Assembly: GCA_033345195.1 (NCBI GenBank)
Contig: JAWPOE010000001.1
Span: 8,192 to 72,191 of the forward strand
Length of the DNA stretch: 64,000 nt
DNA from: Alphaproteobacteria bacterium
GTDB lineage: Bacteria; Pseudomonadota; Alphaproteobacteria; Rs-D84
Direction: 5' to 3'
Shown here: in pieces, positions 3 to 14,420 of the stretch
How the letters are laid out: every line of letters begins with the position of its first letter
Numbering within the stretch: position 1 is the first letter of the stretch
The notes under the pieces: model-generated
Seen by the model: only the letters and a program-made list of their open reading frames with translations
The model's database searches: none
What the model was told of the DNA's origin: nothing
Translations under genes and position numbers: made by a program

Positions 3-2384
3 ATCGTATTACCATCGACCCCATCAAACACATTTGGCACAGAATACAATTCATGTCGTGATGCCTATTTCACATGTATGGATCAATTTTGCGCAACTGC
101 AAATGACAGCTATCGCAGATGCATATGTTCTTCAAAACTGGCTGAAATACAATCACGGGAACGCGCACTGTCGCAAACATCTGACCAACTGCAAGACTTT
201 AAAGAACTGAACATCAGTGTTATTAATAAAACAGCCCAGGAAGTCGATGCAATGCTATCCGCGACCAACGGCGAATTGGCACAAGAAAATACCACAGACA
301 CATCTGACAGCGCAAAACATCTATCCGGGATAAGTGCCGTTTTATCCAAGGCCAAGAAAAATTCATTATCAACCCAAGGCACACTGGATATCGCGGGCGA
401 TATAAATACGATATGGTCAACAACTACGCTAACCGGTGGCAACACCATTGCCAATCTGACCGGCGAATCGCTGTATAATGCTGTACACGCCCAATGTTCT
501 GAAATGGTTTCTGAACGTTGTGGTGGTAAATCAACAGTTGATATGGTCGTATCCGCATATGGTATGTACATCGAAAATGACTGTTCTGCGATAATAAATT
601 CACTGGACAAAAAACTAATCGCCGCCAACAGTACAATTCGCGAAACAGAACGCCAAATGAATGAAGCACGCCTGGAAAACTATAACACACATAATTCGAA
701 ATCCATTAACGACTGCATCGCCCAGGTACGAATTGACATAACCAACGACAATGCATGTGGCACAAATTACGTACACTGTCTGGATGTAACTGGTCGATAT
801 TTAAACTATAATACCGGCGAACCAATCTATACGCCTGATTTTTATAAACTTTCTTCTCAGATATCTTTATCTGGGGACGTATTAACGAATGAAACCAACC
901 GTTTAATTGTCGCCAACCTAAATAATAAACGCAATTACGCAAAACGCGGTCTTGACACATGCCGCGATTTAGCAAATGAAGTATGGGACGAATTTATGCG
1001 CCAGGCAATTACAGAAATATACCAGGGACAACAAGAACGTATTAGGAAAGTTAAAAACGAGTGTTTAGAAGTTGTAAACGCATGTTACGACGAACAAAAT
1101 CAATCCTTAAAAGATTTCAGCAATGTTGATGAACAACTGTTACTGGGCACACGCTTGGAATTATCCGAACAAATGTGCAAAGAAAAATTAGACACATGCA
1201 GCAACCTATACGGCAATGGTTCGAATGGAATGCAAGAATTATTAATCGCAATGCACAATATTACAGACGCAAAAATCGCAAAACAGTGCGTTGCAACATT
1301 GCAACAGTACGCACGCGATTTATGTGCAGTACCCAGCAAAGATACTATACACGCATACCCATACGGATGCCGAACATATGCCCCCAGCGAACACCGATTT
1401 GCCGCACTTGAAATGTGTAATATAAATGCGTATTCACCCACCCCCACTGTTTCACAACAACAAACACTGACAGGAACAAACTATACAAAAACAGCCACTA
1501 ATGGTTATGATGAAGATATAGATTCTAAAACCAAACTGGATGGTGGCTGGTCAACAAACAACACATTCTATCAATGCGTAATAACATATGTCTATTGCAA
1601 GCAAGGCTATTACCTAGAGAACGGCCAATGTCTGACATGTCCAACCGGCTGTACATGCCCAGGTGGCACAGAAAAAACTTGCACAACTACGCAAGACAAA
1701 GAAGATTCTTGTGGCGATTATGAAGGCAGTTTATATCAAAAAATGGTACGCTATGCATCCCAGGCATGCGTCCGCCCCAGCGCGCCAACAAACCCACTGC
1801 CCGACACAATCTTACAAGACATCAACACAGTGATGACACAATTACACACCGACATGGCAACACAATTGGTCGCCGAATGTGAACGTTGGGACGGTGAATG
1901 GGTCAGCACAGTCTGGAAAGATGATGAGACTGACGGCAAACACGACACAACCGGCCATACACTTAATCCACGTTTCTATCGCGAAACAAACGCCAGTACC
2001 AAATGGGGATTCTGCGCAGAAAAAACAGCGTCCCAACAGACACCGTCAGACGATACAGAAGATACAGACGATACAGAAGATACAAACGATACAGAAGATA
2101 CAACAAAATATACAATAACATTCGAAAATAAAACTGACGTTTGCAAAACCCCCTTTCCAGAACGCATTACTCAAAAGGTGGCATTTGGCGCAGACATGCC
2201 AACAATAGGTCTACCACAATGTGCTGATGTAACCGCAACATACAAATTTAACGGGTATTATTATGAAGGGGAAAAATACTATGATGAAAAAGGTTCGCCA
2301 ACAAACAAGCATGCGATTTGGAACAAAGAATCAGATGCAACATTGACAGCCAATTGGACTAAAGCCACACCAGTAAACTACTAA
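3..2384 (+). CDS. Secreted Cys-rich repeat protein, 5' partial (large Cys-rich family)
   Basis: The frame is open from the window edge, with no stop upstream of the M at 78. The motif FTCMDQFC..RRCICS is shared with the 11499 and 8107 proteins. It has a CxxC-rich module (GYYLENGQCLTCPTGCTCPGG) and an acidic DTEDT repeat. The C-terminus YTITF..GYYYEG..ATLTANW resembles a Listeria-Bacteroides (Flg_new) repeat. Confidence 0.6.
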   Translation: MVLPSTPSNTFGTEYNSCRDAYFTCMDQFCATANDSYRRCICSSKLAEIQSRERALSQTSDQLQDFKELNISVINKTAQEVDAMLSATNGELAQENTTDTSDSAKHLSGISAVLSKAKKNSLSTQGTLDIAGDINTIWSTTTLTGGNTIANLTGESLYNAVHAQCSEMVSERCGGKSTVDMVVSAYGMYIENDCSAIINSLDKKLIAANSTIRETERQMNEARLENYNTHNSKSINDCIAQVRIDITNDNACGTNYVHCLDVTGRYLNYNTGEPIYTPDFYKLSSQISLSGDVLTNETNRLIVANLNNKRNYAKRGLDTCRDLANEVWDEFMRQAITEIYQGQQERIRKVKNECLEVVNACYDEQNQSLKDFSNVDEQLLLGTRLELSEQMCKEKLDTCSNLYGNGSNGMQELLIAMHNITDAKIAKQCVATLQQYARDLCAVPSKDTIHAYPYGCRTYAPSEHRFAALEMCNINAYSPTPTVSQQQTLTGTNYTKTATNGYDEDIDSKTKLDGGWSTNNTFYQCVITYVYCKQGYYLENGQCLTCPTGCTCPGGTEKTCTTTQDKEDSCGDYEGSLYQKMVRYASQACVRPSAPTNPLPDTILQDINTVMTQLHTDMATQLVAECERWDGEWVSTVWKDDETDGKHDTTGHTLNPRFYRETNASTKWGFCAEKTASQQTPSDDTEDTDDTEDTNDTEDTTKYTITFENKTDVCKTPFPERITQKVAFGADMPTIGLPQCADVTATYKFNGYYYEGEKYYDEKGSPTNKHAIWNKESDATLTANWTKATPVNY
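2049..2105 (+). repeat. In-frame tandem repeat gatacagaagatacaRac x3 (DDTEDTDDTEDTNDTEDTT)
   Basis: Read directly in the sequence; 18-nt unit inside the CDS. Confidence 0.85.
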
Positions 2385-2438
2385 CACTTGCGCAAAAGAT
2401 AAAAAATTGATAAAGTTTATAATAAAAGAGAGAAACAT

Positions 2439-3137
2439 ATGAACAAAATATTAATCGCATCATTCCTATCTGTTATTGGAATCAATTTTGCATTTGGTGC
2501 AACACCATGGTGGGAACAACCAACAGTATGCAAGTTAAATCCATCAGATTGTTATTCGGGTATGGGTGCCGGGTTTGATTCTGAAATGTGGGATGCAACC
2601 GCCGGATGTTGGGGCATGAAGTATATTTGCCCGGACGCAACAACAACGAACACACGCGAACCAATCTTGATGGGACGTGAAGAAATCAAACGTGGCACCG
2701 GTATAAATGTTGATTTTGATACAGATTTATTATCAGCCGACGACGAATGTTTTGGTCGCCGCAAAACAGCCGATGGTGGCACAATGGCATCTGTTAACGG
2801 AAAATTTGTTAATGTATGGTGTAACGGCATATTAGATAACGCAGACGAAACGTTGGGAAATGGTGAAATAACATACGGGACACAACCAACCTGCTCTACC
2901 CTGGCAAAAGATGGCTATGTTGGTGTTGAAAATGGTCGTTGTTATGGAAAATATTTTGACACAAACAAATATATCATCGAATGCGGTTCTGCATTACTGC
3001 CAACGCGCTTGATTGTATTAAATGGCGCAGACTATAACACACCAACAAATATAAAATCAGAATCTGATGCCGAACGCATGTTTAACACCATGTATTCAAA
3101 TTCAAAAACACAAAAAGCAAAATACTTTAAGAAATAA
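2439..3137 (+). CDS. Secreted Cys-rich hypothetical protein
   Basis: ATG preceded by aaagagagaaaca. Signal peptide MNKILIASFLSVIGINFAFG. Many Cys residues. Followed by a terminator. Confidence 0.6.
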   Translation: MNKILIASFLSVIGINFAFGATPWWEQPTVCKLNPSDCYSGMGAGFDSEMWDATAGCWGMKYICPDATTTNTREPILMGREEIKRGTGINVDFDTDLLSADDECFGRRKTADGGTMASVNGKFVNVWCNGILDNADETLGNGEITYGTQPTCSTLAKDGYVGVENGRCYGKYFDTNKYIIECGSALLPTRLIVLNGADYNTPTNIKSESDAERMFNTMYSNSKTQKAKYFKK

Positions 3138-3161
3138 AAAATCCCGTTTTGGGATTTTTTA
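3136..3161. terminator. Bidirectional intrinsic terminator
   Basis: aaaaa-atccc-gtttt-gggat-tttttt lies between convergent genes. Confidence 0.6.
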
Positions 3162-3590
3162 TTTCGTCTTTTGCTTCATACCTGCACAAATTTCTGCAAT
3201 ACGCTTTTCAGCAACACCGTCATCCAGCTTAATTGGGTTATGTTGCATAACATTTTCTATGAAACGCAATGCATTTGGATTCTTGCGCAGATACGAACTG
3301 CGTACACGTAAAACAATCGAACCATCACGATAATAATTACTTCTATGCTCTGAAAACTTTATACCATTGCTGCGCAAAATCTGTTTTGCAATATTGCGTT
3401 CTTGTGCATTATAAATAAAACAATACCAGTACGAAATCCTGTTACTGGCAGTTGTAAAAAACATCCCCCCTTGCGCCAAATGCGATAATGCCATTGCATC
3501 CGCACACGGATTATCACTAACCGCCACAGGCGCACGCCCCGGAAATAAATTTTTTACATATTCAACAACTGTATTAAAATTCATGTTCAT
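3159..3590 (-). CDS. Hypothetical cytoplasmic protein
   Basis: 143-aa ORF with an ATG start. No recognisable family and no signal peptide. Confidence 0.45.
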   Translation of the reverse strand: MNMNFNTVVEYVKNLFPGRAPVAVSDNPCADAMALSHLAQGGMFFTTASNRISYWYCFIYNAQERNIAKQILRSNGIKFSEHRSNYYRDGSIVLRVRSSYLRKNPNALRFIENVMQHNPIKLDDGVAEKRIAEICAGMKQKTK

Positions 3591-3655
3591 AATATTTATA
3601 CCTTTATATTTTTATTGAATAACTATAATATTATACAAAAACTAAAATTCAAGTA

Positions 3656-3680
3656 TATAAAAACCGGGCAAATTGCCCGG
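3656..3680 (-). terminator. Intrinsic terminator of the 3684..7328 gene
   Basis: On the minus strand, ccgggcaatttgcccgg is followed by ttttta. Confidence 0.5.
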
Positions 3681-3683
3681 TAC

Positions 3684-6600
3684 CTATATCCCCAAACGAT
3701 GTGACATCTTTAACATAAATATAGATTCGTTCCCAAAGTCATCTGTATGATTTGGATTTACGCGATAAATAAACCCAAATGCCCCGTCTGTAAACTCACC
3801 AAACTTATGACGATAGGCGCCACTAAAACGCAATTCGCGCTGTTCTGGTTCCAGGTATAAATCTTCGATATGCGTATTAACAACGTTTAATTCATATCTG
3901 TTATCTGCCATTTCAACAACATCATAATCTGCATATGCATACCGCAATGCGCCATCTGTTATCGCCAATGGCTGCGATACCGCAAATTCAAAATTCCCAA
4001 TATTTGCACCAATTGCAAATGCATTTGAATCGACATCTGTCATTCCTAAGATAAACTGCCCAGATGCATCCGACATCGTTCGTGCAAACGTTGCACGGGC
4101 GGTAAAATCGACCAAATCAGACACACGATATTTTGCAACCGCATCAACATAGGTCGTATTCCCTGCCCCCAAATTCAATAAACCACCTGTCTGTGCCCCC
4201 AAGATTGTGTCAGATTCGTGCGCAAAACCAATCGACGTTGTAAAGGCAAATTTATCATTTGACCATGTCACATCAGACTGCGCCCCCTGAATCAGCCCCA
4301 ACGTCGCCGGCATATATTGTGCCGAAATTGTTGGATCATTTTCCAATAACCCCTCATCCGTAATTGCCCCAGAAAACGCACGCGCACCAAATGTCCAATT
4401 ACCGTTTTCATATGCAACATCAGATACAATCGCATTTGATGCCAATCCCAATATAGGATTAGCCAAACCATCAAAGCGCGACACTCCATCTGTCAAGTAA
4501 TGCTGATATGATGCACCGAATGTCCAATTCCCAGATTTATAATCCAACGACAAATTATCCAACCCATTCATATTATCATTATATGCACGTTCGGAAAAAG
4601 CCATCGATAAACCAATATTGCCGATTTGACTGCGTTGAACATTATCGCGACGCGTCTTGAAATCGCCCAAAACATCCCCCATATACAAACCACGTTCACC
4701 AGATGTCCCCAGCGCAAATTCATTTTCCCAAACGCGTGGCAAACTCATTTTCCCATCAACACTTTCCAACACATCATAGAACGGCGCACGAATTGTTGCC
4801 CCACGCAAACTTAATACAGACGACGGCCTAAACATCGTATTAGACGCCACGCGCCAATATGCATTTCCATTTGCCGACACTATATTATTTCCGTCATAAA
4901 AATAAACAGACGTGCCCGGCTTTGTTGCACGTTCCAAATTTATTAATCCATAGCCAAAGACCTGGGCAAATGTATCAAGATAATCTGCACCATTATCAAC
5001 ACCGTCTTGAAATTCGCCCGGTAAATCATACATATTCTTTAAATACGCCGTCAGTGTATCTTCTGTAAACGCGGTCCCGGTAACCGTCGTTCCCAACAGG
5101 GGACCATCCGCCGTCAAGGCCAACAACGCAAACACCTGTTTATTATTCAAATAATCAAATGCAGATTTTACTGCACCAACCGCACCAGCCACACTGGACA
5201 CCGCATGTTCATCCGATTGACCTGCACCGGCAAAGCACCATGGATCAACAGAACCACGTCCCGTCCCTGCAATACCACATGCGCGCGCCTTGTAATACGT
5301 ATCATCAGAATCATCATCTGGCGTACCATTATCATTTGTCCATTTGGCCAATTGTATCTTTCCCGTCGGCGAATAACCAGACACACTGGTTGTTCCTGCT
5401 GTTCCAGAACCGCCCAACTCAACCGCCACCGCAGACATAAAATACCCCTCTGCATTTTCATATATCAGCGGCACAACATTCTCAAACGTCGCAAACAATG
5501 TTTTCCCCGTGGCCAAACTATCTGTTTCAAAACCACCGGTTGAAAAAACCATTATCGGCTGAAAACTGGCGCCCAATTGCCCAAACAAACTTGTTGCATA
5601 CGTTCCCTGAAAATCCGTATCAGCCCCCAAATCATAATACCCATTTACCAATGCCGCCAACCCAGTCTGACGCATATCTGCCGGCAAAGACAAAATATCA
5701 TCAATTGTTTCAACCGTCACCGCACGCAAAGGTGAAATCACGGACGAATTCGCAATAACATCGACACGCGAACGCCCACCACTTAAATCACCATTAACCC
5801 ACAATTGTGCGGCCTTGGCCATCGCCTTGTAATTTAAATAATCCAGCGTCCCCAATTCCTTGACCAATTCTAAATCACCGTCCGTCATTGAATACGCCTG
5901 ATTAATTTTTCCATCCGCGCCACTATCAATATACAAATACCCATTTGCACCAATATAGCCATTATACTTTTTTGATGGATCTGCACTATTCGTTGCAACA
6001 AATGTATTACCAGTCTGCACAACAGTCATTGTTTCACCGAACAGAACAATTTGTGTTAATTTTGAATCTGTTAATTCATACGTCCCCGTACTTTCCGTTG
6101 TGGCATCAACCATACCAATTCCACCACCGGTACGAAAGATTGTCATCTGACCATTTGGCATAAATCCGATATAATCCGCATCTGGGTACCCAGCATCACG
6201 CCCCCCAACAATCTTTGCCAGCAGATTATCATCATTTGTTGCGCTTGTATTATTTACAACAGTCCCCCATCCTGCCAAATCAAAATTTGCCAACCACGCA
6301 GAATCTTCCACAGTCACAGCATTTGCCAATGTTCCTTCGCCCGTTCCAAGAACAACCTTGTTATTATAATATTTGCTGGACACAGTTGTATCATCACCTG
6401 GATTTACAGCTGTACCATTAACACTGGTCCACGGCAACAAAGTATCACCCAACGAAGACACGGCATCAACACCATACGCATAATTATTTGCATTCACACC
6501 ATTTGCCGTCACCAGCGCAACATTTACCGGACGTCCACCCAACACAGGTTCCCCACGCCAATTAACATCATCCAGTTTAAACGGTTCACGCGTTGACATG

Positions 6601-7328
6601 CTGCGCAACGTACGCATTCCCATATACCCACGCGCCAGTGGCGAATACCCATGCATCATCAACAAATAGTTTTGCCCATCAAGATTGGTCATCAAATCAA
6701 AATTTTTTGCGTAAATTAATTCTGCATCGCTGGGACTATAAAGATCCAAATTTTCAACATAATATTGGCTTTCATCCTTGGCTGTTGGCATTGCTGGGCC
6801 ATAAGGCAATGTAAATGCCGCCGTTGCATTACCGCCAGAACCACCACCAGAACCACCACCACTGGGCCTATCCCCACCAGACGAAGACGAATCATTATCA
6901 TTACCCGGGTCAAAGACATCTGTTAACAACAATAATCCGCCAACTACAACGGCGGCACCCGCCGCCGTCAATGCAATGCTTTGGGCAGACGACAGTCCGC
7001 TGAACAATCCGCCCCCACCCCTTGGTTTATTCCGATTATTATATTGCTTTATCTGTCGGTCGCACTTTGACGCATCTGCGCCATACATCTGCAAAATCTG
7101 TGCTGCACGCACATCATTATTCATCAGTGCCGTACAAACAATCGACAACCCCGTTGAATCAACAAAGTTCACATTTGCACCATTATTCACCAATGCCTGC
7201 ACCTGTTGAATATCTGCATTTTTTGCCGCCGCCAACAACTGTGCCGCCATCATAAAATCACTGGTTGCACCGAATGATGCCACAGGCGCCATGAACAACG
7301 AAAACATTAAAACTCTGATAAATTTCAT
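3684..7328 (-). CDS. Ankyrin-repeat plus C-terminal beta-barrel outer-membrane protein (autotransporter-like)
   Basis: 1214 aa. Signal peptide, then ANK-like LVNNGANVNFVDSTGLSIVCTALMNNDVRAAQILQMYGADA, a hydrophobic segment, a G/S linker and a large passenger domain. The last ~300 aa have alternating beta-strand patterns (GNWTFGASYQHY, FAFTTSIGFAHE). Confidence 0.55.
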   Translation of the reverse strand: MKFIRVLMFSLFMAPVASFGATSDFMMAAQLLAAAKNADIQQVQALVNNGANVNFVDSTGLSIVCTALMNNDVRAAQILQMYGADASKCDRQIKQYNNRNKPRGGGGLFSGLSSAQSIALTAAGAAVVVGGLLLLTDVFDPGNDNDSSSSGGDRPSGGGSGGGSGGNATAAFTLPYGPAMPTAKDESQYYVENLDLYSPSDAELIYAKNFDLMTNLDGQNYLLMMHGYSPLARGYMGMRTLRSMSTREPFKLDDVNWRGEPVLGGRPVNVALVTANGVNANNYAYGVDAVSSLGDTLLPWTSVNGTAVNPGDDTTVSSKYYNNKVVLGTGEGTLANAVTVEDSAWLANFDLAGWGTVVNNTSATNDDNLLAKIVGGRDAGYPDADYIGFMPNGQMTIFRTGGGIGMVDATTESTGTYELTDSKLTQIVLFGETMTVVQTGNTFVATNSADPSKKYNGYIGANGYLYIDSGADGKINQAYSMTDGDLELVKELGTLDYLNYKAMAKAAQLWVNGDLSGGRSRVDVIANSSVISPLRAVTVETIDDILSLPADMRQTGLAALVNGYYDLGADTDFQGTYATSLFGQLGASFQPIMVFSTGGFETDSLATGKTLFATFENVVPLIYENAEGYFMSAVAVELGGSGTAGTTSVSGYSPTGKIQLAKWTNDNGTPDDDSDDTYYKARACGIAGTGRGSVDPWCFAGAGQSDEHAVSSVAGAVGAVKSAFDYLNNKQVFALLALTADGPLLGTTVTGTAFTEDTLTAYLKNMYDLPGEFQDGVDNGADYLDTFAQVFGYGLINLERATKPGTSVYFYDGNNIVSANGNAYWRVASNTMFRPSSVLSLRGATIRAPFYDVLESVDGKMSLPRVWENEFALGTSGERGLYMGDVLGDFKTRRDNVQRSQIGNIGLSMAFSERAYNDNMNGLDNLSLDYKSGNWTFGASYQHYLTDGVSRFDGLANPILGLASNAIVSDVAYENGNWTFGARAFSGAITDEGLLENDPTISAQYMPATLGLIQGAQSDVTWSNDKFAFTTSIGFAHESDTILGAQTGGLLNLGAGNTTYVDAVAKYRVSDLVDFTARATFARTMSDASGQFILGMTDVDSNAFAIGANIGNFEFAVSQPLAITDGALRYAYADYDVVEMADNRYELNVVNTHIEDLYLEPEQRELRFSGAYRHKFGEFTDGAFGFIYRVNPNHTDDFGNESIFMLKMSHRLGI

Positions 7329-7390
7329 TTATATTCTCTCTTTATAAATAAATCTTATCACAAGATATTTTTTCCGTCTACATAAAAATG

Positions 7391-7418
7391 CAAAAAAAAG
7401 AACCCGTCTTTCGACGGG
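7391..7418 (-). terminator. Intrinsic terminator
   Basis: On the minus strand, cccgtc-gaaa-gacggg followed by ttctttttttt, just after the stop at 7427. Confidence 0.6.
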
Positions 7419-7426
7419 CAATCATT

Positions 7427-7963
7427 TTAATAACAAACACGCTGTCTCGTTTTTGTTTTAACAGTCACTGTCACCGTGGTTGTTCGCTTAAATTGATTCA
7501 AAGAATCCGCGACCGCCGCTGGTGTTGGGCTTTGCACAACGATATTATTGTTATGCCCAACAACAATTGTCGCACCATCGCCACAGTTATTAATATTTAC
7601 ATTCTGTTCTGGTGCAGATACAGTCACAGGTTTTTCAACAACAACGACAACCGTATCTTTTTGTGGTTGCGGTTTACGTGGCTGTGGTTTACGTGGTTGC
7701 TGACGTGTTTTTTTGCTTTCACGACAATCGTCCAACATTTCCTGGGCATCACGCAAATCTTGCTTTAATTCATTGATTGAATCTGCCAATTCACGAACCC
7801 TGTCATCACTACTAATAACCGCCACAGAATCTTTTTGTTCTGAATCCGTCTGATGTTCTTTTACCATTCTGTTGCATGTTGGCAATCCAATAATCATCAG
7901 TCCTGCGACAACAATACCAACCGCCCCAGTTGCCAACCACCATTTTTTTGAAGACGATGCCAT
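7427..7963 (-). CDS. Membrane-anchored hypothetical protein with RKPQP repeat
   Basis: The track start at 7987 is GTG. The ATG at 7963 has AAAGGA 8 nt upstream. The N-terminal TM segment is WWLATGAVGIVVAGLMIIGL. Confidence 0.5.
   Translation of the reverse strand: MASSSKKWWLATGAVGIVVAGLMIIGLPTCNRMVKEHQTDSEQKDSVAVISSDDRVRELADSINELKQDLRDAQEMLDDCRESKKTRQQPRKPQPRKPQPQKDTVVVVVEKPVTVSAPEQNVNINNCGDGATIVVGHNNNIVVQSPTPAAVADSLNQFKRTTTVTVTVKTKTRQRVCY
7664..7705 (-). repeat. 15-nt in-frame tandem repeat (PRKPQ x2-3)
   Basis: tggttgcggtttacg / tggctgtggtttacg / tggttgctgacg. Confidence 0.6.
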
Positions 7964-8080
7964 ATCAAAATCCTTTTGTTTAATCACGCGTCATATTTTA
8001 GACAAATATTTATACTTTGTCAAACACAAATAAAAAATATACAAACCTTGACATTTCCCTTTGCGCGCGAATCAGTTTTT

Positions 8081-8089
8081 TGATATAAT
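8081..8089 (+). promoter_or_regulatory. Extended -10 promoter element TGATATAAT
   Basis: Matches TGnTATAAT 18 nt upstream of the ATG at 8107. RBS agagagaaa. Confidence 0.4.
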
Positions 8090-8106
8090 GGAACGCAAGA
8101 GAGAAA

Positions 8107-8970
8107 ATGAAAATACACATATTATTTTTAACGACCACGGTTTTATTGACGTCTAACGCCTATGCGGTGGCAAAGTGTTCCAAGGCAAATCTGACCCGAT
8201 GCCTTGATTCTGCATGCGCGATAAATTTATCAACAAATCCTGCAGCACGTTGTCAGTATTGTGGCACGTCCAGTGCCGGCGAACCACCCAAAAGCAAAAT
8301 GCGCAGCGTATCTGCCGGCGCATCCGCAAAATACAACATTTCTGAAAAAGATTTAAAAAAAGCACCAACCGATCCTGGGCAACGCTATGCCTGGGCAACG
8401 GCCCAGTGCATTAAAAAGGTTGCCGGATGTACCGCCGACGATGTGTCTGACACATACGACAGCCTGATTGAACAATCGTGTACGGCCGCCGGCGTATCAT
8501 CAAAAATGGCTGCATCCCAGGAAAAGGCCAACAAAAAGAAAACCCAGTCATCTTGTAAATCAGACATTCGTGCATGCATCGTCGCGCAAAATCGTTGCAC
8601 ATCTGATTTCCGTGCCTGCGAAGATGATGCCGACTTTGATAAATTCTTTTCTGCATGTGGGGTCGAATCTGCTGGCTGTGACGATTATATATCTGCTATT
8701 CGTTCTGAATTGATTGCCGACCGAAATAACGCGATAAAGAACGCTGATGTCGTTCTGGCACAAATCGCAGAATCATATGCCAAGGCACGTGAACAGAAAT
8801 TAACAAATGCAAAAAATTCATGTAAAGATAATTCTGCACGCGACGCGTGTGTTGAAACGGTCTGCGCCAACAACATGCCTAACAAATGTGGTGACGGTTT
8901 CCAGGGTGAAAAAGCAATGGCGATTCAGTTATGCAAATTCCATGAAATTGCCTGTGCAACAATTGATTAA
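8107..8970 (+). CDS. Secreted Cys-rich protein (large Cys-rich family)
   Basis: Signal peptide ending SNAYA. Contains CLDSAC..ARCQYC and repeated C-x6-8-C modules shared with neighbouring paralogs. Confidence 0.6.
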   Translation: MKIHILFLTTTVLLTSNAYAVAKCSKANLTRCLDSACAINLSTNPAARCQYCGTSSAGEPPKSKMRSVSAGASAKYNISEKDLKKAPTDPGQRYAWATAQCIKKVAGCTADDVSDTYDSLIEQSCTAAGVSSKMAASQEKANKKKTQSSCKSDIRACIVAQNRCTSDFRACEDDADFDKFFSACGVESAGCDDYISAIRSELIADRNNAIKNADVVLAQIAESYAKAREQKLTNAKNSCKDNSARDACVETVCANNMPNKCGDGFQGEKAMAIQLCKFHEIACATID

Positions 8971-8976
8971 AGAAAG

Positions 8977-10521
8977 ATGAAGACGACAAAACAAAATCTT
9001 GTTCAGAAAATATTTAATATGCGACGCGTATGCCATGTTGTATTTTGTTCCATACTGATGGCTGCCTTTATAATCGCAGACGCAAATTCTGCGGTCGTTT
9101 CACGCAACAAACGTCCAACAAATGCCGGTGTACGCATGGCAACCGCCACAGCAACCCAAAACACCGAACCAGAAATAATCGAAGAAAAGATTATTGACGA
9201 AGAAATAATCGAAGAAGAACCTGTCGAAGAAGAAGAAATTATCGAAAACAAATCATCACAGTTTGACGACATTCTGGGCGAAGCGTCCGCGTCTGGCACA
9301 GACAGTTCAAAAACCGCCCTGGCAGAAAAAATTCGCGCCCAGCGTGCCGCACTGGACGCACGTGACGCGGTCGATACTGCAAATGCAAAAATACAAAATT
9401 CAATGGCGAACGGTCAAAACGCCTGTGATTTTGGTTTGCGCGAATGCATGAAGAAAAAATGTGGCAACAATTATTCCAAATGTGCCAAAGATACAGATAC
9501 CCTGTGGGGCGACAAGATGGACGCATGTCGTCGCGACCTGCCCTGCACCGGCGAAGAATATCGTATTTTCACGACCGAAATAAAGGCCGACCGTGACATG
9601 AACACGAAAATCGGTTCGTACACATCAATCATCGACTGTGGCAACAAATACAACGATTGTGTGATTACAGAATGCGGAAAAACATTTTCAAAATGCCTGG
9701 GGAAAAGCGCCGGCGATAAAGCAATTGAAAAATGCAAAAAAATCGCAAACGAATGTAAAGAGCAAGACAGCGGTCTGCCATCCCGCATGATAGAGGTTTT
9801 TGGAACCCTGCGTCAAGATGCCGAAAAACAAATCAAAAAAGATGAAGAAAAACTATACAGCCTGCGCGATAGCATGGCAGACACCTGCAAAATGTTGGGC
9901 GCAATGTTTGACGAACGCACATTGGATTGCGTATACACTGTAAACTTTTTTGCCGGCGATAAAAACACATTATTTGCGTCGAAAAAGGCATATGCCGGCA
10001 GCACGTTTAACTGTGATCAGAATTGGTTTGGTATTGATGTGACAACGTTTAAAGAAAACGCATATCGTCTGACCCGATCTCAGACGGCGGCATCCTCTGC
10101 TATGTTGGGCAGTGGTGTTGGTACAGCGGTTGGTTCTATAACCAGTGGAGCGTTAAATCGAGCCTTAGACCGTCAGAAAGCAGAGAAAGCGTTAAAGAAA
10201 GCGAAAGAAGAAGGGAAAGAACAAAAGACAGAAGACGAAGAAAGCAACGCTTCTAAAGAAAACGAAGAAGGGAAAGAACAAAAGACAGAAGACGAAGAAA
10301 GCAATGCTTCTGAAGAAAACAACTCCCAAGAGGGGGGGGACAATAACGGTTCTGAAGACGCCACAGTTGACCAAGACGATTCTTCTAACAAACAAGAAAA
10401 TAATACCATAAAAACCGAGACAAACAGCCAAGACCATACAAATATGGATACACCAAGTACACAAATAGATACTACAACAGGTGCACCATCGACTGAACAG
10501 GTTCCCAAAATAAGAACATAA
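8977..10521 (+). CDS. Secreted Cys-rich protein with acidic low-complexity tails
   Basis: Starts 6 nt after the preceding stop, so operonic. Hydrophobic leader, ECMKKKCGNNYSKC and CGKTFSKC modules, and E/K-rich repeats. Confidence 0.6.
   Translation: MKTTKQNLVQKIFNMRRVCHVVFCSILMAAFIIADANSAVVSRNKRPTNAGVRMATATATQNTEPEIIEEKIIDEEIIEEEPVEEEEIIENKSSQFDDILGEASASGTDSSKTALAEKIRAQRAALDARDAVDTANAKIQNSMANGQNACDFGLRECMKKKCGNNYSKCAKDTDTLWGDKMDACRRDLPCTGEEYRIFTTEIKADRDMNTKIGSYTSIIDCGNKYNDCVITECGKTFSKCLGKSAGDKAIEKCKKIANECKEQDSGLPSRMIEVFGTLRQDAEKQIKKDEEKLYSLRDSMADTCKMLGAMFDERTLDCVYTVNFFAGDKNTLFASKKAYAGSTFNCDQNWFGIDVTTFKENAYRLTRSQTAASSAMLGSGVGTAVGSITSGALNRALDRQKAEKALKKAKEEGKEQKTEDEESNASKENEEGKEQKTEDEESNASEENNSQEGGDNNGSEDATVDQDDSSNKQENNTIKTETNSQDHTNMDTPSTQIDTTTGAPSTEQVPKIRT
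10207..10320 (+). repeat. 57-nt in-frame tandem duplication (EEGKEQKTEDEESNAS[K/E]EN x2)
   Basis: Two near-identical 57-nt units read directly in the sequence. Confidence 0.85.
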
Positions 10522-10539
10522 CTTATAAATGTATAAAAA

Positions 10540-10562
10540 AACGGGTAAACGCCCGTTTTTTT
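10540..10562 (+). terminator. Intrinsic terminator
   Basis: aacggg-taaacg-cccgtt followed by ttttt. Confidence 0.6.
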
Positions 10563-10593
10563 ATCTCTATCCCCAAACAAAATATGCAATAAT

Positions 10594-10756
10594 TTTTGTC
10601 ATTCCTGCTTCGGGTCCCGCAAAAATTGAAAAATTTTTGTGGGTGATACCAGGCAGGAACAGGGTCTATAAAATTTACATTCACCGCTATTTTATAATTT
10701 TTATGGTTCGCGTTGCTCACACTACTTAGTCCCACTCCTGCCGTCGCAGGAGTGAC
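10594..10756. repeat. Dispersed palindromic MITE/REP-like element (copy of 44954..45114)
   Basis: The first ~90 nt are nearly identical to 44954-45040. Nested hairpins are gtcattcctgc..gcaggaa and cccgcaaaaatt-gaa-aaatttttgtggg. The 3' part ggttcgcgttgc..actcctgcc.gcaggagtgac is also shared. Confidence 0.8.
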
Positions 10757-10763
10757 AGGAGGC

Positions 10764-11385
10764 TTAATTTTTGCAAACCAAAAAAGCCCAATTGCGACTA
10801 TAATCAATACATTCAAAACTTAGTAGTTGTACATTTTGTTTCTGGATCACCCCAGCGACAACTGCACTGGTCGCTATTGATCCCGCATAAGCCATCCCCC
10901 CTTGCAGAACCACCATCCCTAATCCTGCCCCCGCCTCTACCGCGGCACTCATCGCACCAGCAGCCGCACCGGTGGCAATACCCGCGGCACCAAATGTAAA
11001 TATCGACGCAACCACAATTGCCGCAGCAATAATACCACCAATAATAATCTTTCCTATTACACCGCCAGGTGGCGTTGGCGAACGTGGCAATGCCGAAATT
11101 TGTGCCATGCTGACACATGCCTGACGCGCTGCCTCGCGATAGGCGTCTTTCTTGTTTTCGCCACGAATTTCCGCCTGGCGTGCAGCAATCTTTTAAATCA
11201 GTTGTACATGCATTAACACGCATTGACGCCAATGCCGCCAAAACATAATCCCAAATATTAGACTGTTCTGCACTTTCCCTGGATGACGCGTCAATACCAC
11301 ACACATTCAACGGCACCTTACAAACATTTAACATGGTTTTTTGTGTGGGAAACACATAAAAAATCCAGTCAAAAAAAACACGCAA
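10764..11385 (-). pseudogene. Truncated, frameshifted paralog of the 11499..14330 gene
   Basis: MLNVCKVPLNVCGIDASSRESAEQSNIWDYVLAALASMRVNACT aligns with MLNLCKIPLNACGIDASSKQSAEQSDVWDFVVARLASMRVDACT (aa ~465 of the full-length protein). The sensible continuation (IAARQAEIRGENKKDAYREAARQACVSMAQISALP.. then a Gly/Ala-rich TM tail) is in another frame, behind a TAA near 11190. Confidence 0.5.
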
Positions 11386-11498
11386 ACGATAGGTTGCGTG
11401 GCATTAAAAAGACTGGATTTTTTATGAGCAAACATAGATAAAAACACTTTATTTATTTGCAGAAATATGGTATCATTAAATAAATTGGAAGGGAAGTT

Positions 11499-14330
11499 AT
11501 GAGAAGGCTTATTGTTTTTGCGTTGGTTATTAGTGGTGTTCTTTGCGATGCATATGGTGCGGCTGCACGTCGTGCAACGGCTGCAACGCGCGGTGGTGCT
11601 GGGGTACAGTCTGTTGGGGCACGCAGTAATGGCGCAGCAAAGTCAAACGTAGCAAGTCGTGATCGTTCTGCAACGCCTGCCAATGGAACTGTTTCCGCGC
11701 GTGCGGCGGTGCAAAACAAAAGTGTGGGGAGTAAGCCGGTGGTTGCAGCGCGCGCTGGGGTCACACAAAAGGTTATTGGTACGGGTACCAAGGTTGCAGG
11801 CGCAACAAAAAATATAGTCGTAAGCGAAGAATGCCAAAACAAATACGAAGGATGTATGGATTCATTTTGTATGATAGATAATGCCAGTGGTGGTCGCTGT
11901 ATTTGTAGTAACAAGAATTCTGAATTAAACGAAGTTCTGGCAGAAATTGAAAAATTGGACGAACAGTCTTATCAAATGGCAACATTTGGTGTTGAAAAAC
12001 TGGAAATGGGTGCAGATGCAGAAGCTGCAATTGCAAGCGCAAATGCGGTTGCACAATCGGTTGTAAAAAACAGTGATGGGAATGACAAGAAAATCACGCG
12101 ACGCACGCTGGATATGTCTTTGTGGGCGCAAGACACTGATTTATATGAAGAAGAAAATGTCTTTTCAGACGGAATGTCTGTTAGTGTCGAAGGAAAAGAA
12201 GGCGACGCGTTATACCGCGCCGCTTCGGAAATTTGCGTTGCGCAAATTCCCGAATGTGCATCTGATATGCAGATGCTGCAACTGATGTACGGCCAACGGA
12301 TTAAATCTGACTGTGTCGCGTTTGAAAATAGTTTGAAACAAAAGAAAAGTGCAAGTGTGCAAAAACTGGCTGTCGCAGAACAAGCTTTGCGCGAAGCTGC
12401 CTTGGAGCAGCTGCGTACCGCAAATAAATATGACCTTGGTCAATGTACAATCGAATTTAAAAAATGTATGCAAACCACAGGTGGTTGTGGCGATGACTTT
12501 TCGTCTTGTGCAGTAATGAGCGCGCTGGACGCAACAAATACCAGAAAATCAACTTCAAAACAGGCAAAGAATTTTAAGATACAAGGCAGTATAACAAGTA
12601 TAGAGGTTAGTGCTTCTACTTATGATAACTTAATCGCTAAAAAAACGCTGTGCGAAGGCATTACCAAATCTTGCGTCGCCGTCGCTGATAAAGTTTGGGA
12701 TACCTTCTTGAAAGATGTCGCGCCGCAACTTAAAAACGCAGAATTAATCGCAGAAGATAAAGCAAGACAAGATTGCGTCGGTAATATATCAAACTGTTTC
12801 CAAAAGGCGTGTAAAGATAATATGGATCCAAATGACCCAGATGGTTCGTATGATTTGTGCCTAACTCGACCAGAAACTATGTTAAATTTATGTAAGATTC
12901 CTCTTAATGCATGTGGTATTGATGCTTCATCTAAACAATCCGCAGAACAATCAGATGTCTGGGATTTCGTCGTCGCTAGACTCGCTTCTATGAGAGTCGA
13001 TGCTTGTACCGCTGAGGTCAAATCATGCCTGCAAGCCGATGATAGATGCGGTAAAGACTATACTCAATGTATCGGATTGGATATTGATGCATTAAAGGAA
13101 ATGTGCCCACTTGAAAAATTGCTTGCATGTCAAACATCCGATGACAATGGCAATTATAGCGCCAGATGGACGCAATTTGAAAACATTGTTCAAGGTGTAT
13201 GGTTGGGGATTGACAATTCTTTATTGGAACAGTGTAAACAAATTGTCAATGAACGTATGTTAGAATTGTGTGGCGATACAGCAACATGCATGGCCTTTGA
13301 TGACGACAAGGCTATTGGCACCGAATCATTAGTAAGCTATCAAGAAAACAATGGCAATTACGTTATCGAGGGCTTGATTTCATTTGGTAATATCAAGATT
13401 GAAAGGGCAACATCATCCGATGATGATATAAAATTTGGTAAATATGAAATTAATATCAACGACTACAAAAGACATCTGGACAGCACAAACCCAACAACAG
13501 CACGTGTTGTATCTGCTCTGCAATCAACGGCAAGCAAAATCAATCAAAAAATATCTGTTTTGTCCCAAGACCCACAAGTAGACATGTGTATCAATGGTCG
13601 TAACATGCGCAACATAAACGGTCGCGAATCGACAGCCGTTGCCCGTTTTCCATACTTGTTAGACTCATATATCTTGGCTATAATTTCATCAGGATTGGAT
13701 CACGCGCATAAAAACTATACCGAAAAATATAATAAATTGTTGGGAGAGGCACTTGAAGCCAAAGACGATGCAATCAAGGCAACGCTATGCGCCGCAATGG
13801 CATCAAATGAAAAACCACAATGCACCGAATGGATAAGTGTTGATGGCAATGCTTTTTGCACGCAATATACGGCGAATACCTTTGATAATGTTTTCAGTGA
13901 TGAAGGCACCAAGGGCCTAAGTGGCAATGACATTTATTCAACAAAATATACTATAACAGGCGCGAAGCTATCTGACCTGGCCACCCTTCAACAAAAAGGT
14001 CATGCTGAATTTACCCAAACAGATTCCAAAGGGAATATGATTGGTAAAATTGCAACTGCAGCAGTCTATTCCCCTGGCAATAACACGTGTACATTGACCA
14101 CAACAACCACAATGTGTTCAGACATGGAGGCAATAATCACCACAGACACAACCAAAACATGTAAATCTGGTGGCTTCTCATTTCTGGGTGGCAGTGGCTG
14201 CAAAGGCGGCGGTGGCTTTTTGAATATCGGGGGCAGTACCAATACTACAACCGTTGACCAAACATACGAAGGTCTTAATTGTAATGGATTTATGGACCCG
14301 ATTACCACAACCTCAAGTATAAAAATGTAA
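11499..14330 (+). CDS. Large secreted Cys-rich protein (943 aa)
   Basis: RBS ggaagggaag and a signal peptide ending CDAYG. Contains CMDSFCMIDNASGGRCICS and many paired-Cys modules. Confidence 0.7.
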   Translation: MRRLIVFALVISGVLCDAYGAAARRATAATRGGAGVQSVGARSNGAAKSNVASRDRSATPANGTVSARAAVQNKSVGSKPVVAARAGVTQKVIGTGTKVAGATKNIVVSEECQNKYEGCMDSFCMIDNASGGRCICSNKNSELNEVLAEIEKLDEQSYQMATFGVEKLEMGADAEAAIASANAVAQSVVKNSDGNDKKITRRTLDMSLWAQDTDLYEEENVFSDGMSVSVEGKEGDALYRAASEICVAQIPECASDMQMLQLMYGQRIKSDCVAFENSLKQKKSASVQKLAVAEQALREAALEQLRTANKYDLGQCTIEFKKCMQTTGGCGDDFSSCAVMSALDATNTRKSTSKQAKNFKIQGSITSIEVSASTYDNLIAKKTLCEGITKSCVAVADKVWDTFLKDVAPQLKNAELIAEDKARQDCVGNISNCFQKACKDNMDPNDPDGSYDLCLTRPETMLNLCKIPLNACGIDASSKQSAEQSDVWDFVVARLASMRVDACTAEVKSCLQADDRCGKDYTQCIGLDIDALKEMCPLEKLLACQTSDDNGNYSARWTQFENIVQGVWLGIDNSLLEQCKQIVNERMLELCGDTATCMAFDDDKAIGTESLVSYQENNGNYVIEGLISFGNIKIERATSSDDDIKFGKYEININDYKRHLDSTNPTTARVVSALQSTASKINQKISVLSQDPQVDMCINGRNMRNINGRESTAVARFPYLLDSYILAIISSGLDHAHKNYTEKYNKLLGEALEAKDDAIKATLCAAMASNEKPQCTEWISVDGNAFCTQYTANTFDNVFSDEGTKGLSGNDIYSTKYTITGAKLSDLATLQQKGHAEFTQTDSKGNMIGKIATAAVYSPGNNTCTLTTTTTMCSDMEAIITTDTTKTCKSGGFSFLGGSGCKGGGGFLNIGGSTNTTTVDQTYEGLNCNGFMDPITTTSSIKM

Positions 14331-14390: not shown

Positions 14391-14416
14391 AAAAAAAAAA
14401 TCCCCCAAACGGGGGA
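14391..14416 (-). terminator. Intrinsic terminator of rplQ (also serves the convergent + gene)
   Basis: On the minus strand, tccccc-gttt-ggggga followed by T10. Confidence 0.65.
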
Positions 14417-14420
14417 TTAA

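Follow-up and report, generated by a model that had tools for sequence, protein, structure and literature searches.

An undescribed family of exported, cysteine-rich proteins confined to the uncultured bacterial order Rs-D84

Cysteine-rich proteins encoded at the locus

The window analyzed in this study is a stretch of 64,000 nucleotides that corresponds to positions 8192–72191 of contig C1 in a genome of Candidatus Enterousia (order Rs-D84, Alphaproteobacteria). This source genome, designated G000, comprises 898 kb in 8 contigs and is 97% complete. An original prediction described positions 3–14330 of the window as an island of five intact genes and one remnant that encode paralogous, secreted, cysteine-rich proteins of an unrecognized family. 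All five open reading frames (ORFs), which we designate A to E, are present together with the remnant. The encoded proteins are dense in cysteine (A, 4.2%; B, 3.9%; C, 7.0%; D, 3.3%; E, 4.1%) compared with the proteome as a whole (1.5%; ~807 crude gene calls). Each starts with an n-region of positive charge that leads into a hydrophobic core and then an AxA-type cleavage site, as judged by our own hydropathy heuristic rather than by SignalP. The original observation is real, yet over-unified. A and E are members of a large family that is genuinely undescribed at the level of sequence and fold and is restricted to one uncultured order, whereas C appears to be a distant member of compact size, D has a single module in common with the family, and B is unrelated.

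Gene A (plus strand, 1–2384; ORF 3–2384, open at its 5′ end) matches the family hidden Markov model (HMM) at 1.5e-138 and encodes a protein of 909 amino acids. The full gene starts 345 nucleotides upstream of the window at G000 C1:7846, and these 345 nucleotides specify the signal peptide (MKRILIIIMAFFVGVAPVDA) and most of a basic linker. The core domain of A (36–1208; 391 amino acids), which opens with CRDAYFTCMDQFC...RCIC, contains 16 conserved cysteines and is all-α in an AlphaFold2 (AF2) model. The remainder of the protein (1209–2384) is variable and comprises a CxxC/EGF-like cysteine cluster, an acidic DTEDT repeat, and a β-type end module of ~90 amino acids. Gene E (plus strand, 11499–14330; family HMM 2.2e-109) encodes a protein of 943 amino acids in which a signal peptide and a basic linker that extends to residue ~105 are followed by a core (residues ~107–472) and a second helical, cysteine-rich region. 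The C-terminus of E (residues 774–942) is β-rich and abounds in Thr, Gly, and Cys.

The remaining three genes of the original prediction are shorter. Gene C (plus strand, 8107–8970) encodes a compact, secreted protein of 287 amino acids. Gene D (plus strand, 8977–10521) encodes an exported or anchored protein of 514 amino acids that contains two twin-CX6C modules (positions 150 and 221), a glycine-zipper segment (residues ~378–400; window positions 10090–10180), and an acidic low-complexity tail. Gene B (plus strand, 2439–3137) encodes a secreted protein of 232 amino acids with 9 cysteines.

Relationships among the proteins

Comparison of A and E by blastp yields an E-value of 2e-26 over 390 residues, and profile alignment with hhalign gives a probability of 99.8% over 407 columns. 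Judged by these alignments, A and E are homologous beyond doubt. We define the family by a Sec signal peptide, the signature C-x6-C-M-D-x-[FYI]-C-x9-C-x-C, and a core of ~390 amino acids recognized by a paralog HMM, all of which A and E possess. An HMM built from E orthologs finds ten members in the source genome and the paralog-domain HMM adds two weaker ones, which brings the family to 12 genes and ~10,250 codons, equivalent to ~3.4% of the genome. A loosened form of the signature (C-x6,7-C-[ML]-D-x2-C-x8,12-C-x1,2-C) matches 12 of the 3,686 ORFs in a six-frame translation of the genome; these are 11 members and C, with no false positives. The range originally proposed is too narrow for the family. 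Two members, P1 and P2, lie just upstream of the window on the minus strand (G000 C1:2718–5183, 821 amino acids; C1:5214–7379, 721 amino acids), head-to-head with A, and eight are found elsewhere in the genome. P1 is the closest paralog of E (685 bits). The C-terminal ends of E, P1, and P2 read (I/V/S)-x-M (IKM, ISM, and VNM) after a short, acidic stretch that contains cysteine, which could be a C-terminal motif of a subfamily.

The shared N-terminal signature that had been claimed for the proteins is present in A and E and, as a variant, in C, where CSKANLTRCLDSACAINLSTNPAARCQYC directly follows the signal peptide; it is absent from D and B, as is the core domain. C does not match the family HMM in HMMER, even with filters off. 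Alignment of C with the core domain by hhalign, however, gives a probability of 82–84% (E about 1e-5, 136–181 columns), with residues 109–301 placed against the second half of the core. We retain C as a remote member of the family because of this alignment and its signature variant. D has no match to the family HMM and is rejected as a member at the HMMER level; hhalign aligns it to the core with a probability of 62–69% over a single module of 40–54 columns. B exhibits no blastp similarity to the A/E family, and its best hhalign score (36%) falls on the signal peptide, so that B is not a member. The unrelated neighbors X and Y, which served as controls, score 0.2–0.3%.

The repeated cysteine module of the original prediction is also real and is best described as twin CX6C-(3–8)-CX6C. 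Across the genome, this arrangement is found only in the family members, C, D, the remnant, and one ORF of 136 amino acids that is probably spurious. The remnant (minus strand, 10764–11385) is a relic of a family gene. It consists of an E-like piece (10813–11385) that is 69% identical to residues 459–510 of E (blastp 1e-22) and matches profile positions 461–513, a frame break, and an ORF rich in glycine zippers (10764–11108).

Cysteine-rich ORFs occur in the genome outside of the family HMM as well. Two are large: C4:118597–126021 (minus strand; 2474 amino acids, 149 cysteines) and C4:195084–198587 (minus strand; 1167 amino acids, 54 cysteines). In total, 69 ORFs of at least 150 amino acids contain at least 3% cysteine. 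Many of these are small or probably spurious, but a large number of exported proteins are among the 69, which indicates that the cysteine-rich exoproteome is wider than the A/E family.

Architecture and predicted structure

Members of the family have four parts in common: a Sec signal peptide, a linker, the core of ~390 residues, and a C-terminal region. The linker is a low-complexity sequence of Thr, Ser, Ala, and Arg that spans 35–197 residues; most members have a linker with a pI of ~12 and a net charge between +11 and +19, and one has an acidic linker. The core opens with C-x6-C-M-D-x-F-C-x9-C-x-C-S. C-terminal regions differ from paralog to paralog and include EGF-like cysteine clusters, the Thr/Gly-rich β region of E, and a glycine zipper in P2. 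N-termini contain no lipobox; the cysteine in the signal peptide of E follows Leu and is not conserved, which rules out anchoring as a lipoprotein.

AF2 modeling of the A core with a diverse alignment of 101 sequences produced a confident model (pLDDT 87.3, pTM 0.62) that is all-α, with helices of up to 55 residues. In this model, cysteines separated by seven residues (i/i+7) pair up on single helices that lie beside antiparallel partners, an arrangement that would have the geometry expected of double disulfide staples. The model of E, obtained with E orthologs (pLDDT 67), contains long helices as far as residue ~770, and its C-terminus consists of four long strands.

The claim that the family was unrecognized held up in every comparison. 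No Pfam-A or NCBIfam model reaches its cut-off for any protein of the locus or for six further paralogs. Pfam yields only sub-threshold noise, consisting of weak ankyrin matches on the neighboring protein OM and a weak Bacteriocin_IIc match on the glycine zipper of P2. The E-family profile has 0 matches among PDB sequences at E ≤ 10. Foldseek searches with full-length E against PDB and with the A core against PDB and BFVD returned nothing better than an E-value of 0.3 and a TM-score of 0.2.

Specific folds were considered and rejected. For a ClyA- or colicin-type fold, the matches of the core model in PDB (colicin Ia, AhlB, SmhA, and NheA) have E-values of 4.8–8.4, a probability of at most 0.08, and a TM-score below 0.21. 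For a β-barrel toxin fold of the E C-terminus, a region modeled with moderate confidence, the matches to LukGH, alpha-hemolysin, and CytK have E-values of 2.2–3.8 and a probability of at most 0.16. Among 42 long metagenomic relatives, Pfam recognizes Flg_new, the Listeria-Bacteroides repeat known from surface proteins, in 2 (best E-value 6.9e-41) and a single weak DUF7631. Flg_new itself (PF09479; cut-off 27 bits) was rejected for the tip of A, being absent at E ≤ 1 from full-length A and from the isolated tips of A and five orthologs.

Conserved cysteines and the machinery for their oxidation

An alignment of 159 core domains contains 16 cysteine columns that are at least 96% conserved, and the number of conserved core cysteines is even (16–18). 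Two optional cysteines of E, C323 and C385, occur together in 23 domains and are both missing from 136; no domain contains only one of them. A second optional pair shows nearly the same pattern, with counts of 36/3/0/120 across the 159 domains. Homologs of C contain 20 invariant cysteines. The source genome encodes a candidate oxidant, a protein of the DsbA family that carries a CPYC site and is anchored in the membrane at its N-terminus (G000 C6:21250–22074). Export of the proteins, the even number of cysteines, the paired behavior of the optional cysteines, and the presence of a DsbA homolog together indicate that the core cysteines are probably disulfide-bonded.

Distribution of the family

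Searching 1.84 billion protein representatives with a profile of the A/E core domain, one of the checks proposed with the original prediction, retrieved 949 clusters at E ≤ 1e-3 and 568 at E ≤ 1e-30. Among the 150 core-domain matches listed, the domain starts ~100–290 residues from the N-terminus and the protein is ~450–1720 residues long in most cases. E has 927 homologs at E ≤ 1e-3, which are full-length and 47–74% identical. All are nameless or labeled "hypothetical protein" and derive from metagenome-assembled genomes (MAGs) of Alphaproteobacteria. C has 745 homologs with ~60% identity.

At the level of genomes, the E-ortholog profile matches all 24 of the same-genus genomes sampled, with 5–19 matching stretches in each (9–15 in most). 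In other families of the order Rs-D84, matches are patchy and weak. A class-wide sample of 401 genomes contains four with a match, namely the source genome, two congeners, and one further representative of the order. The A/E family is confined to the order Rs-D84 and occurs mainly in Candidatus Enterousia. Loci that encode C (n = 80) are labeled as Candidatus Enterousia or simply as alphaproteobacterial MAGs, and derive from the guts of ruminants, chickens, and other hosts.

The locus is part of the core chromosome

The genes were proposed to form an island. They instead constitute a block of conserved core chromosome that lies beside rplQ–rpoA in many Enterousia species. The order rpoA–rplQ–E is conserved in five genomes of the same genus and E is tandem-duplicated in two; tandem copies of E beside rplQ are found at L010 (G003 C1:251847–256949) and L012 (G017 C2:19810–24888), which represent two other Enterousia species. 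C and D are direct neighbors in this order in 80 of 80 species, and the gene for OM is divergent and within ~1 kb upstream of C in ~70 of the 80. The longer block P2(−) A B Y(−) OM(−) [X] C D is preserved in ~20 species. A mobile island is ruled out by this synteny across species and by a flat GC content of ~0.38–0.45. A multi-copy leader RNA is reported elsewhere in the window, and no copy of it lies near a family gene. Elsewhere in the genus the spacing varies: another Enterousia species (L007) has ~6 kb of variable DNA between E and D compared with the 1-kb relic region described here. At L014, an inverted partial copy of D and an E/P1-like gene lie downstream of D, after which the contig ends.

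Replacement of gene A

We compared rates of substitution between the source genome and the nearest genome, L014, whose C protein is 98% identical. Genes that flank A have dS values of 0.31–0.50 and encode proteins with 86–98% amino acid identity, and C is the most constrained of the genes compared (dN/dS 0.036). In A (L014:1628–4261), by contrast, dS is saturated (at least 2) and identity falls to 66%, distributed unevenly between the core (83%), the C-terminal part (53%), and the linker (46%). Given saturated dS in A and values of 0.31–0.50 in its flanks, A appears to have been replaced by a deeply diverged allele rather than to have drifted in place, and the pattern points to recombination at A alone. 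The ends of A orthologs vary as well: one group terminates with a conserved "...WG(F/Y)C", a second carries in addition a β-type tip of ~90 residues like that of A, and still others end in unrelated cysteine-rich modules. The only counterparts of E found in L014 are a P1-type gene with 37% identity and a short fragment with 53% identity.

Neighboring genes and transcription signals

OM (minus strand, 3684–7328) is an exported protein of 1214 amino acids with sub-cut-off Ank_4/Ank_2 matches in its N-terminal part and a large body. The original prediction placed the cysteine-rich genes next to this protein, described there as an ankyrin-bearing outer-membrane protein; that proximity is upheld, and the linkage is conserved across the genus. 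The C-terminal part of OM was read as a β-barrel in that prediction. Gene Y (minus strand, 3159–3590) encodes a small protein that lacks a signal peptide, and is a conserved neighbor that stands beside OM in ~20 loci. Gene X (minus strand, 7427–7987) encodes a protein of 186 amino acids that contains a coiled-coil region and an N-terminal hydrophobic segment serving as a membrane anchor. A promoter-like site (8023–7995) lies before the gene and a terminator (7419–7402) after it. B is adjacent to A in ~20 species and represents a conserved downstream partner of A.

Clear terminator-like hairpins follow B (3131–3165, 16-bp stem), OM (3681–3663), X, and E. The last of these (14399–14418) is a perfect, bidirectional hairpin, AATCCCCC...GGGGGATT, with T-runs on both strands, and lies between the convergent E and rplQ. 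No such hairpin separates A from B or C from D, the latter being only 6 nucleotides apart, and A-B and C-D therefore probably form operons.

Glycine-zipper-like segments (runs of GxxxGxxxG/A) recur in D, the C-terminus of P2, G2, and the relic ORF. Judging from these runs, glycine zippers may be a common membrane anchor for a subset of the proteins. In keeping with a diderm envelope that has export routes, the genome encodes a single BamA, three TolC-like proteins, and a single secretin. The gene for the sole secretin (G000 C5:44754–46415) is preceded by one for a secreted protein of 317 amino acids, and no type-II secretion or pilus genes adjoin it.

Discussion

Genomes of Rs-D84 are reduced, lack respiration and most biosynthesis, and encode few transporters; the bacteria have been proposed to depend on partner cells for life (PMC12306168). 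Candidatus Enterousia and its order are common in animal guts and have genomes smaller than 1 Mb (PMC12306168). The same literature mentions membrane-bound proteins, termed "hypothetical," with a possible role in cell interactions, but the A/E family is not described there (PMC12306168). Twelve large orphan paralogs and a strict C–D–OM core in so tiny a genome point to something central to the lifestyle of the bacterium, most probably building the envelope and holding on to other cells.

We propose, with a probability of about one half, that the A/E family consists of disulfide-stapled stalks of the envelope or cell surface that carry variable contact modules. Each family protein would be exported by Sec, after which the membrane-anchored DsbA homolog would oxidize the 16–18 conserved core cysteines in the periplasm. 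Oxidation would staple the bundle of long helices, ~390 residues in length, into a rigid rod whose building block would be a helix-turn-helix hairpin with two cysteines seven residues apart on each helix (twin CX6C). The basic, disordered linker of Arg, Ser, Thr, and Ala is probably the tether that holds each protein to the anionic envelope. The C-terminal parts, which are specific to each paralog and appear swapped between orthologs, are probably the working ends, and the stalks would present these variable modules to partner or host cells. C, D (with its twin-CX6C modules and glycine-zipper anchor), and OM probably form a conserved core for assembly or anchoring. Contact stalks of this type would suit a bacterium that is unable to live alone.

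The host- or prey-interaction arsenal of the original prediction is plausible for the variable C-terminal parts of these proteins in view of the allele replacement of A, the swapping of C-terminal tips, and the flux in copy number. The hyper-diverged allele of A suggests that the locus is under frequency-dependent pressure exerted by phage, host immunity, or partner specificity. It is tempting to extend the contact-stalk model further. The family, C–D, and OM might together constitute a surface apparatus of a new kind, in which polycation-tethered, stapled rods of a new fold attach to cells through exchangeable tips renewed by allele replacement, with DsbA operating without DsbB or VKOR. We regard this extended version as possible but tentative.

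Several observations weigh against contact stalks. No signal or route for crossing the outer membrane was recognized, and the only secretin is solitary in its neighborhood. Searches for DsbB and VKOR, both of which hit control genomes, detected neither in the source genome, which is that of an anaerobe and 97% complete. As few as one or two evolutionary events may account for the paired gain and loss of cysteines. E, P1, P2, and C are conserved in the manner of housekeeping envelope parts, unlike variable adhesins, and the resemblance of A's own tip to Flg_new lacks confirmation by Pfam.

Some of these observations favor a lattice in the periplasm or on the inner face of the envelope, in which the proteins would form a disulfide-cross-linked layer that stabilizes the envelope inside the outer membrane, much as the chlamydial outer-membrane complex does, and is not exposed at the surface. 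Strong conservation and fixed chromosomal positions of E, P1, P2, and C, including the low dN/dS of C (0.036), would be expected of such a layer, as would the lack of an outer-membrane translocation signal and the presence of DsbA; glycine zippers in D, P2, and the relic could anchor it, and peptidoglycan or anionic lipids could serve as binding partners of the basic linker. However, allele replacement of A, swapping of C-terminal parts, copy-number flux, and the appearance of Flg_new in some relatives are features typically seen in exposed proteins that face diversifying pressure. A set of twelve large paralogs with different C-termini also exceeds the apparent need of a lattice, and Rs-D84 keeps the genes for rod shape and peptidoglycan, which leaves no obvious need for a substitute wall (PMC12306168). 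We consider the internal lattice doubtful, even though it survives better than the other competing explanations. A structural role in the envelope, taken broadly, is almost as likely as an arsenal directed at host or prey.

In a sharper form of the arsenal originally proposed, the proteins could instead be secreted toxins or effectors, namely ClyA- or colicin-like helical pore formers or β-hairpin pore formers that act on host or prey cells. Colicin Ia, AhlB, SmhA, NheA, and Tc pore helices are among the best Foldseek neighbors of the core, none of them significant, the long C-terminal β-hairpin of E weakly resembles the stems of β-pore formers, and a secretin is present. Those fold matches, however, all have a probability of at most 0.18 and a TM-score below 0.2, and the proteins and their locus revealed neither an amphipathic pore segment nor an immunity gene or toxin domain. 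Disulfide stapling of long helices would oppose the extensive refolding that pore formers require, and in every species the genes belong to the core, keep their synteny, and occur in multiple copies. Nothing points to a toxin role, which we judge improbable. Weaker still is the notion that these are exported metal- or cofactor-binding proteins for scavenging, storage, or redox buffering rather than stapled structures: a very high density of invariant cysteines and the absence of DsbB and VKOR in an anaerobe, where efficient oxidation is not guaranteed, speak for it, but the i, i+7 spacing on helices is not that of CxxC/CxxH-type ligands, conserved cysteines are even in number with optional ones gained and lost strictly in pairs, a DsbA homolog is present, and proteins of 700–1000 amino acids with variable C-terminal modules are ill-suited to chelation, making this reading very improbable.

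Whichever role the proteins play, the core is a confidently modeled domain without a detectable relative in sequence or structure, and it would offer a clean natural example of helix staples built from i/i+7 cysteine pairs. For microbiome work, the family is a source of specific markers of an uncultured lineage and of candidates for its antigens or attachment factors. Even if the proteins prove to be ordinary structural parts of the envelope, this study provides an annotation for ~950 dark protein clusters.

Comparison with known systems

Known cysteine-rich families of the envelope and cell surface appear to resemble the A/E family only by analogy. OmcB and OmcA of Chlamydia are likewise Sec-exported, cysteine-dense envelope proteins of a host-dependent diderm with a reduced genome. 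The two proteins, one large and one small, are encoded together, and their disulfides are thought to provide mechanical stability. OmcB is predicted to be β-rich and is the product of a single-copy gene, whereas the Enterousia proteins are predicted all-α rods with twin CX6C modules, basic disordered linkers, variable C-termini, and 12 paralogs. Homology to OmcB/OmcA is rejected since no such Pfam-A family is detected in A–E and six further paralogs (E ≤ 0.1–1) and Foldseek returns no match.

TraN of F-type conjugation systems is another exported, cysteine-rich protein with many conserved cysteines. TraN is an outer-membrane protein that stabilizes mating pairs and mediates contact between cells. 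The Enterousia family differs in being multi-copy and part of the core chromosome. Membership in TraN is rejected by the absence of a Pfam or NCBIfam TraN match and by the neighboring genes, which are rplQ–rpoA and envelope genes rather than conjugation genes.

The architecture of the family recalls TpsA proteins of two-partner secretion (TPS) systems, which also combine a signal peptide and a conserved domain with exchangeable C-termini, a large outer-membrane neighbor, and allele replacement. However, the conserved module of the Enterousia proteins is a predicted stapled helical bundle, not a β-helix. A–E and OM contain no Pfam domain for TPS, an autotransporter barrel, or a stalk or anchor, and membership in the TPS or autotransporter families is rejected.

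Like the Hcp proteins of Helicobacter, the A/E proteins form a secreted multigene family of a host-associated bacterium, with lineage-specific expansion and α/α repeats. In Hcp proteins, which are built from Sel1-like repeats, each hairpin has its two helices linked by a cysteine pair. The Enterousia helices reach 55 residues compared with repeats of 36 residues in Hcp, and the proteins are 3–4 times larger and have an N-terminal signature and linker of their own. Pfam detects no Sel1 repeat and the AF2 core consists of long, continuous helices, which excludes the family from the Sel1/Hcp group.

A parallel in construction is found in the CHCH, or twin CX9C, proteins of the mitochondrial intermembrane space, whose helix-turn-helix hairpins have two cysteines on the same face of either helix and are held by two parallel staples. 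CHCH hairpins (CX9C/CX3C) fold oxidatively in an extracytoplasmic compartment with Mia40 as oxidant. The lack of a Pfam CHCH match and the spacing CX6C-(3–8)-CX6C rule out membership and make the similarity one of analogous construction only. In Enterousia, the stapled modules would be embedded in very large exported proteins, and the oxidant would be DsbA.

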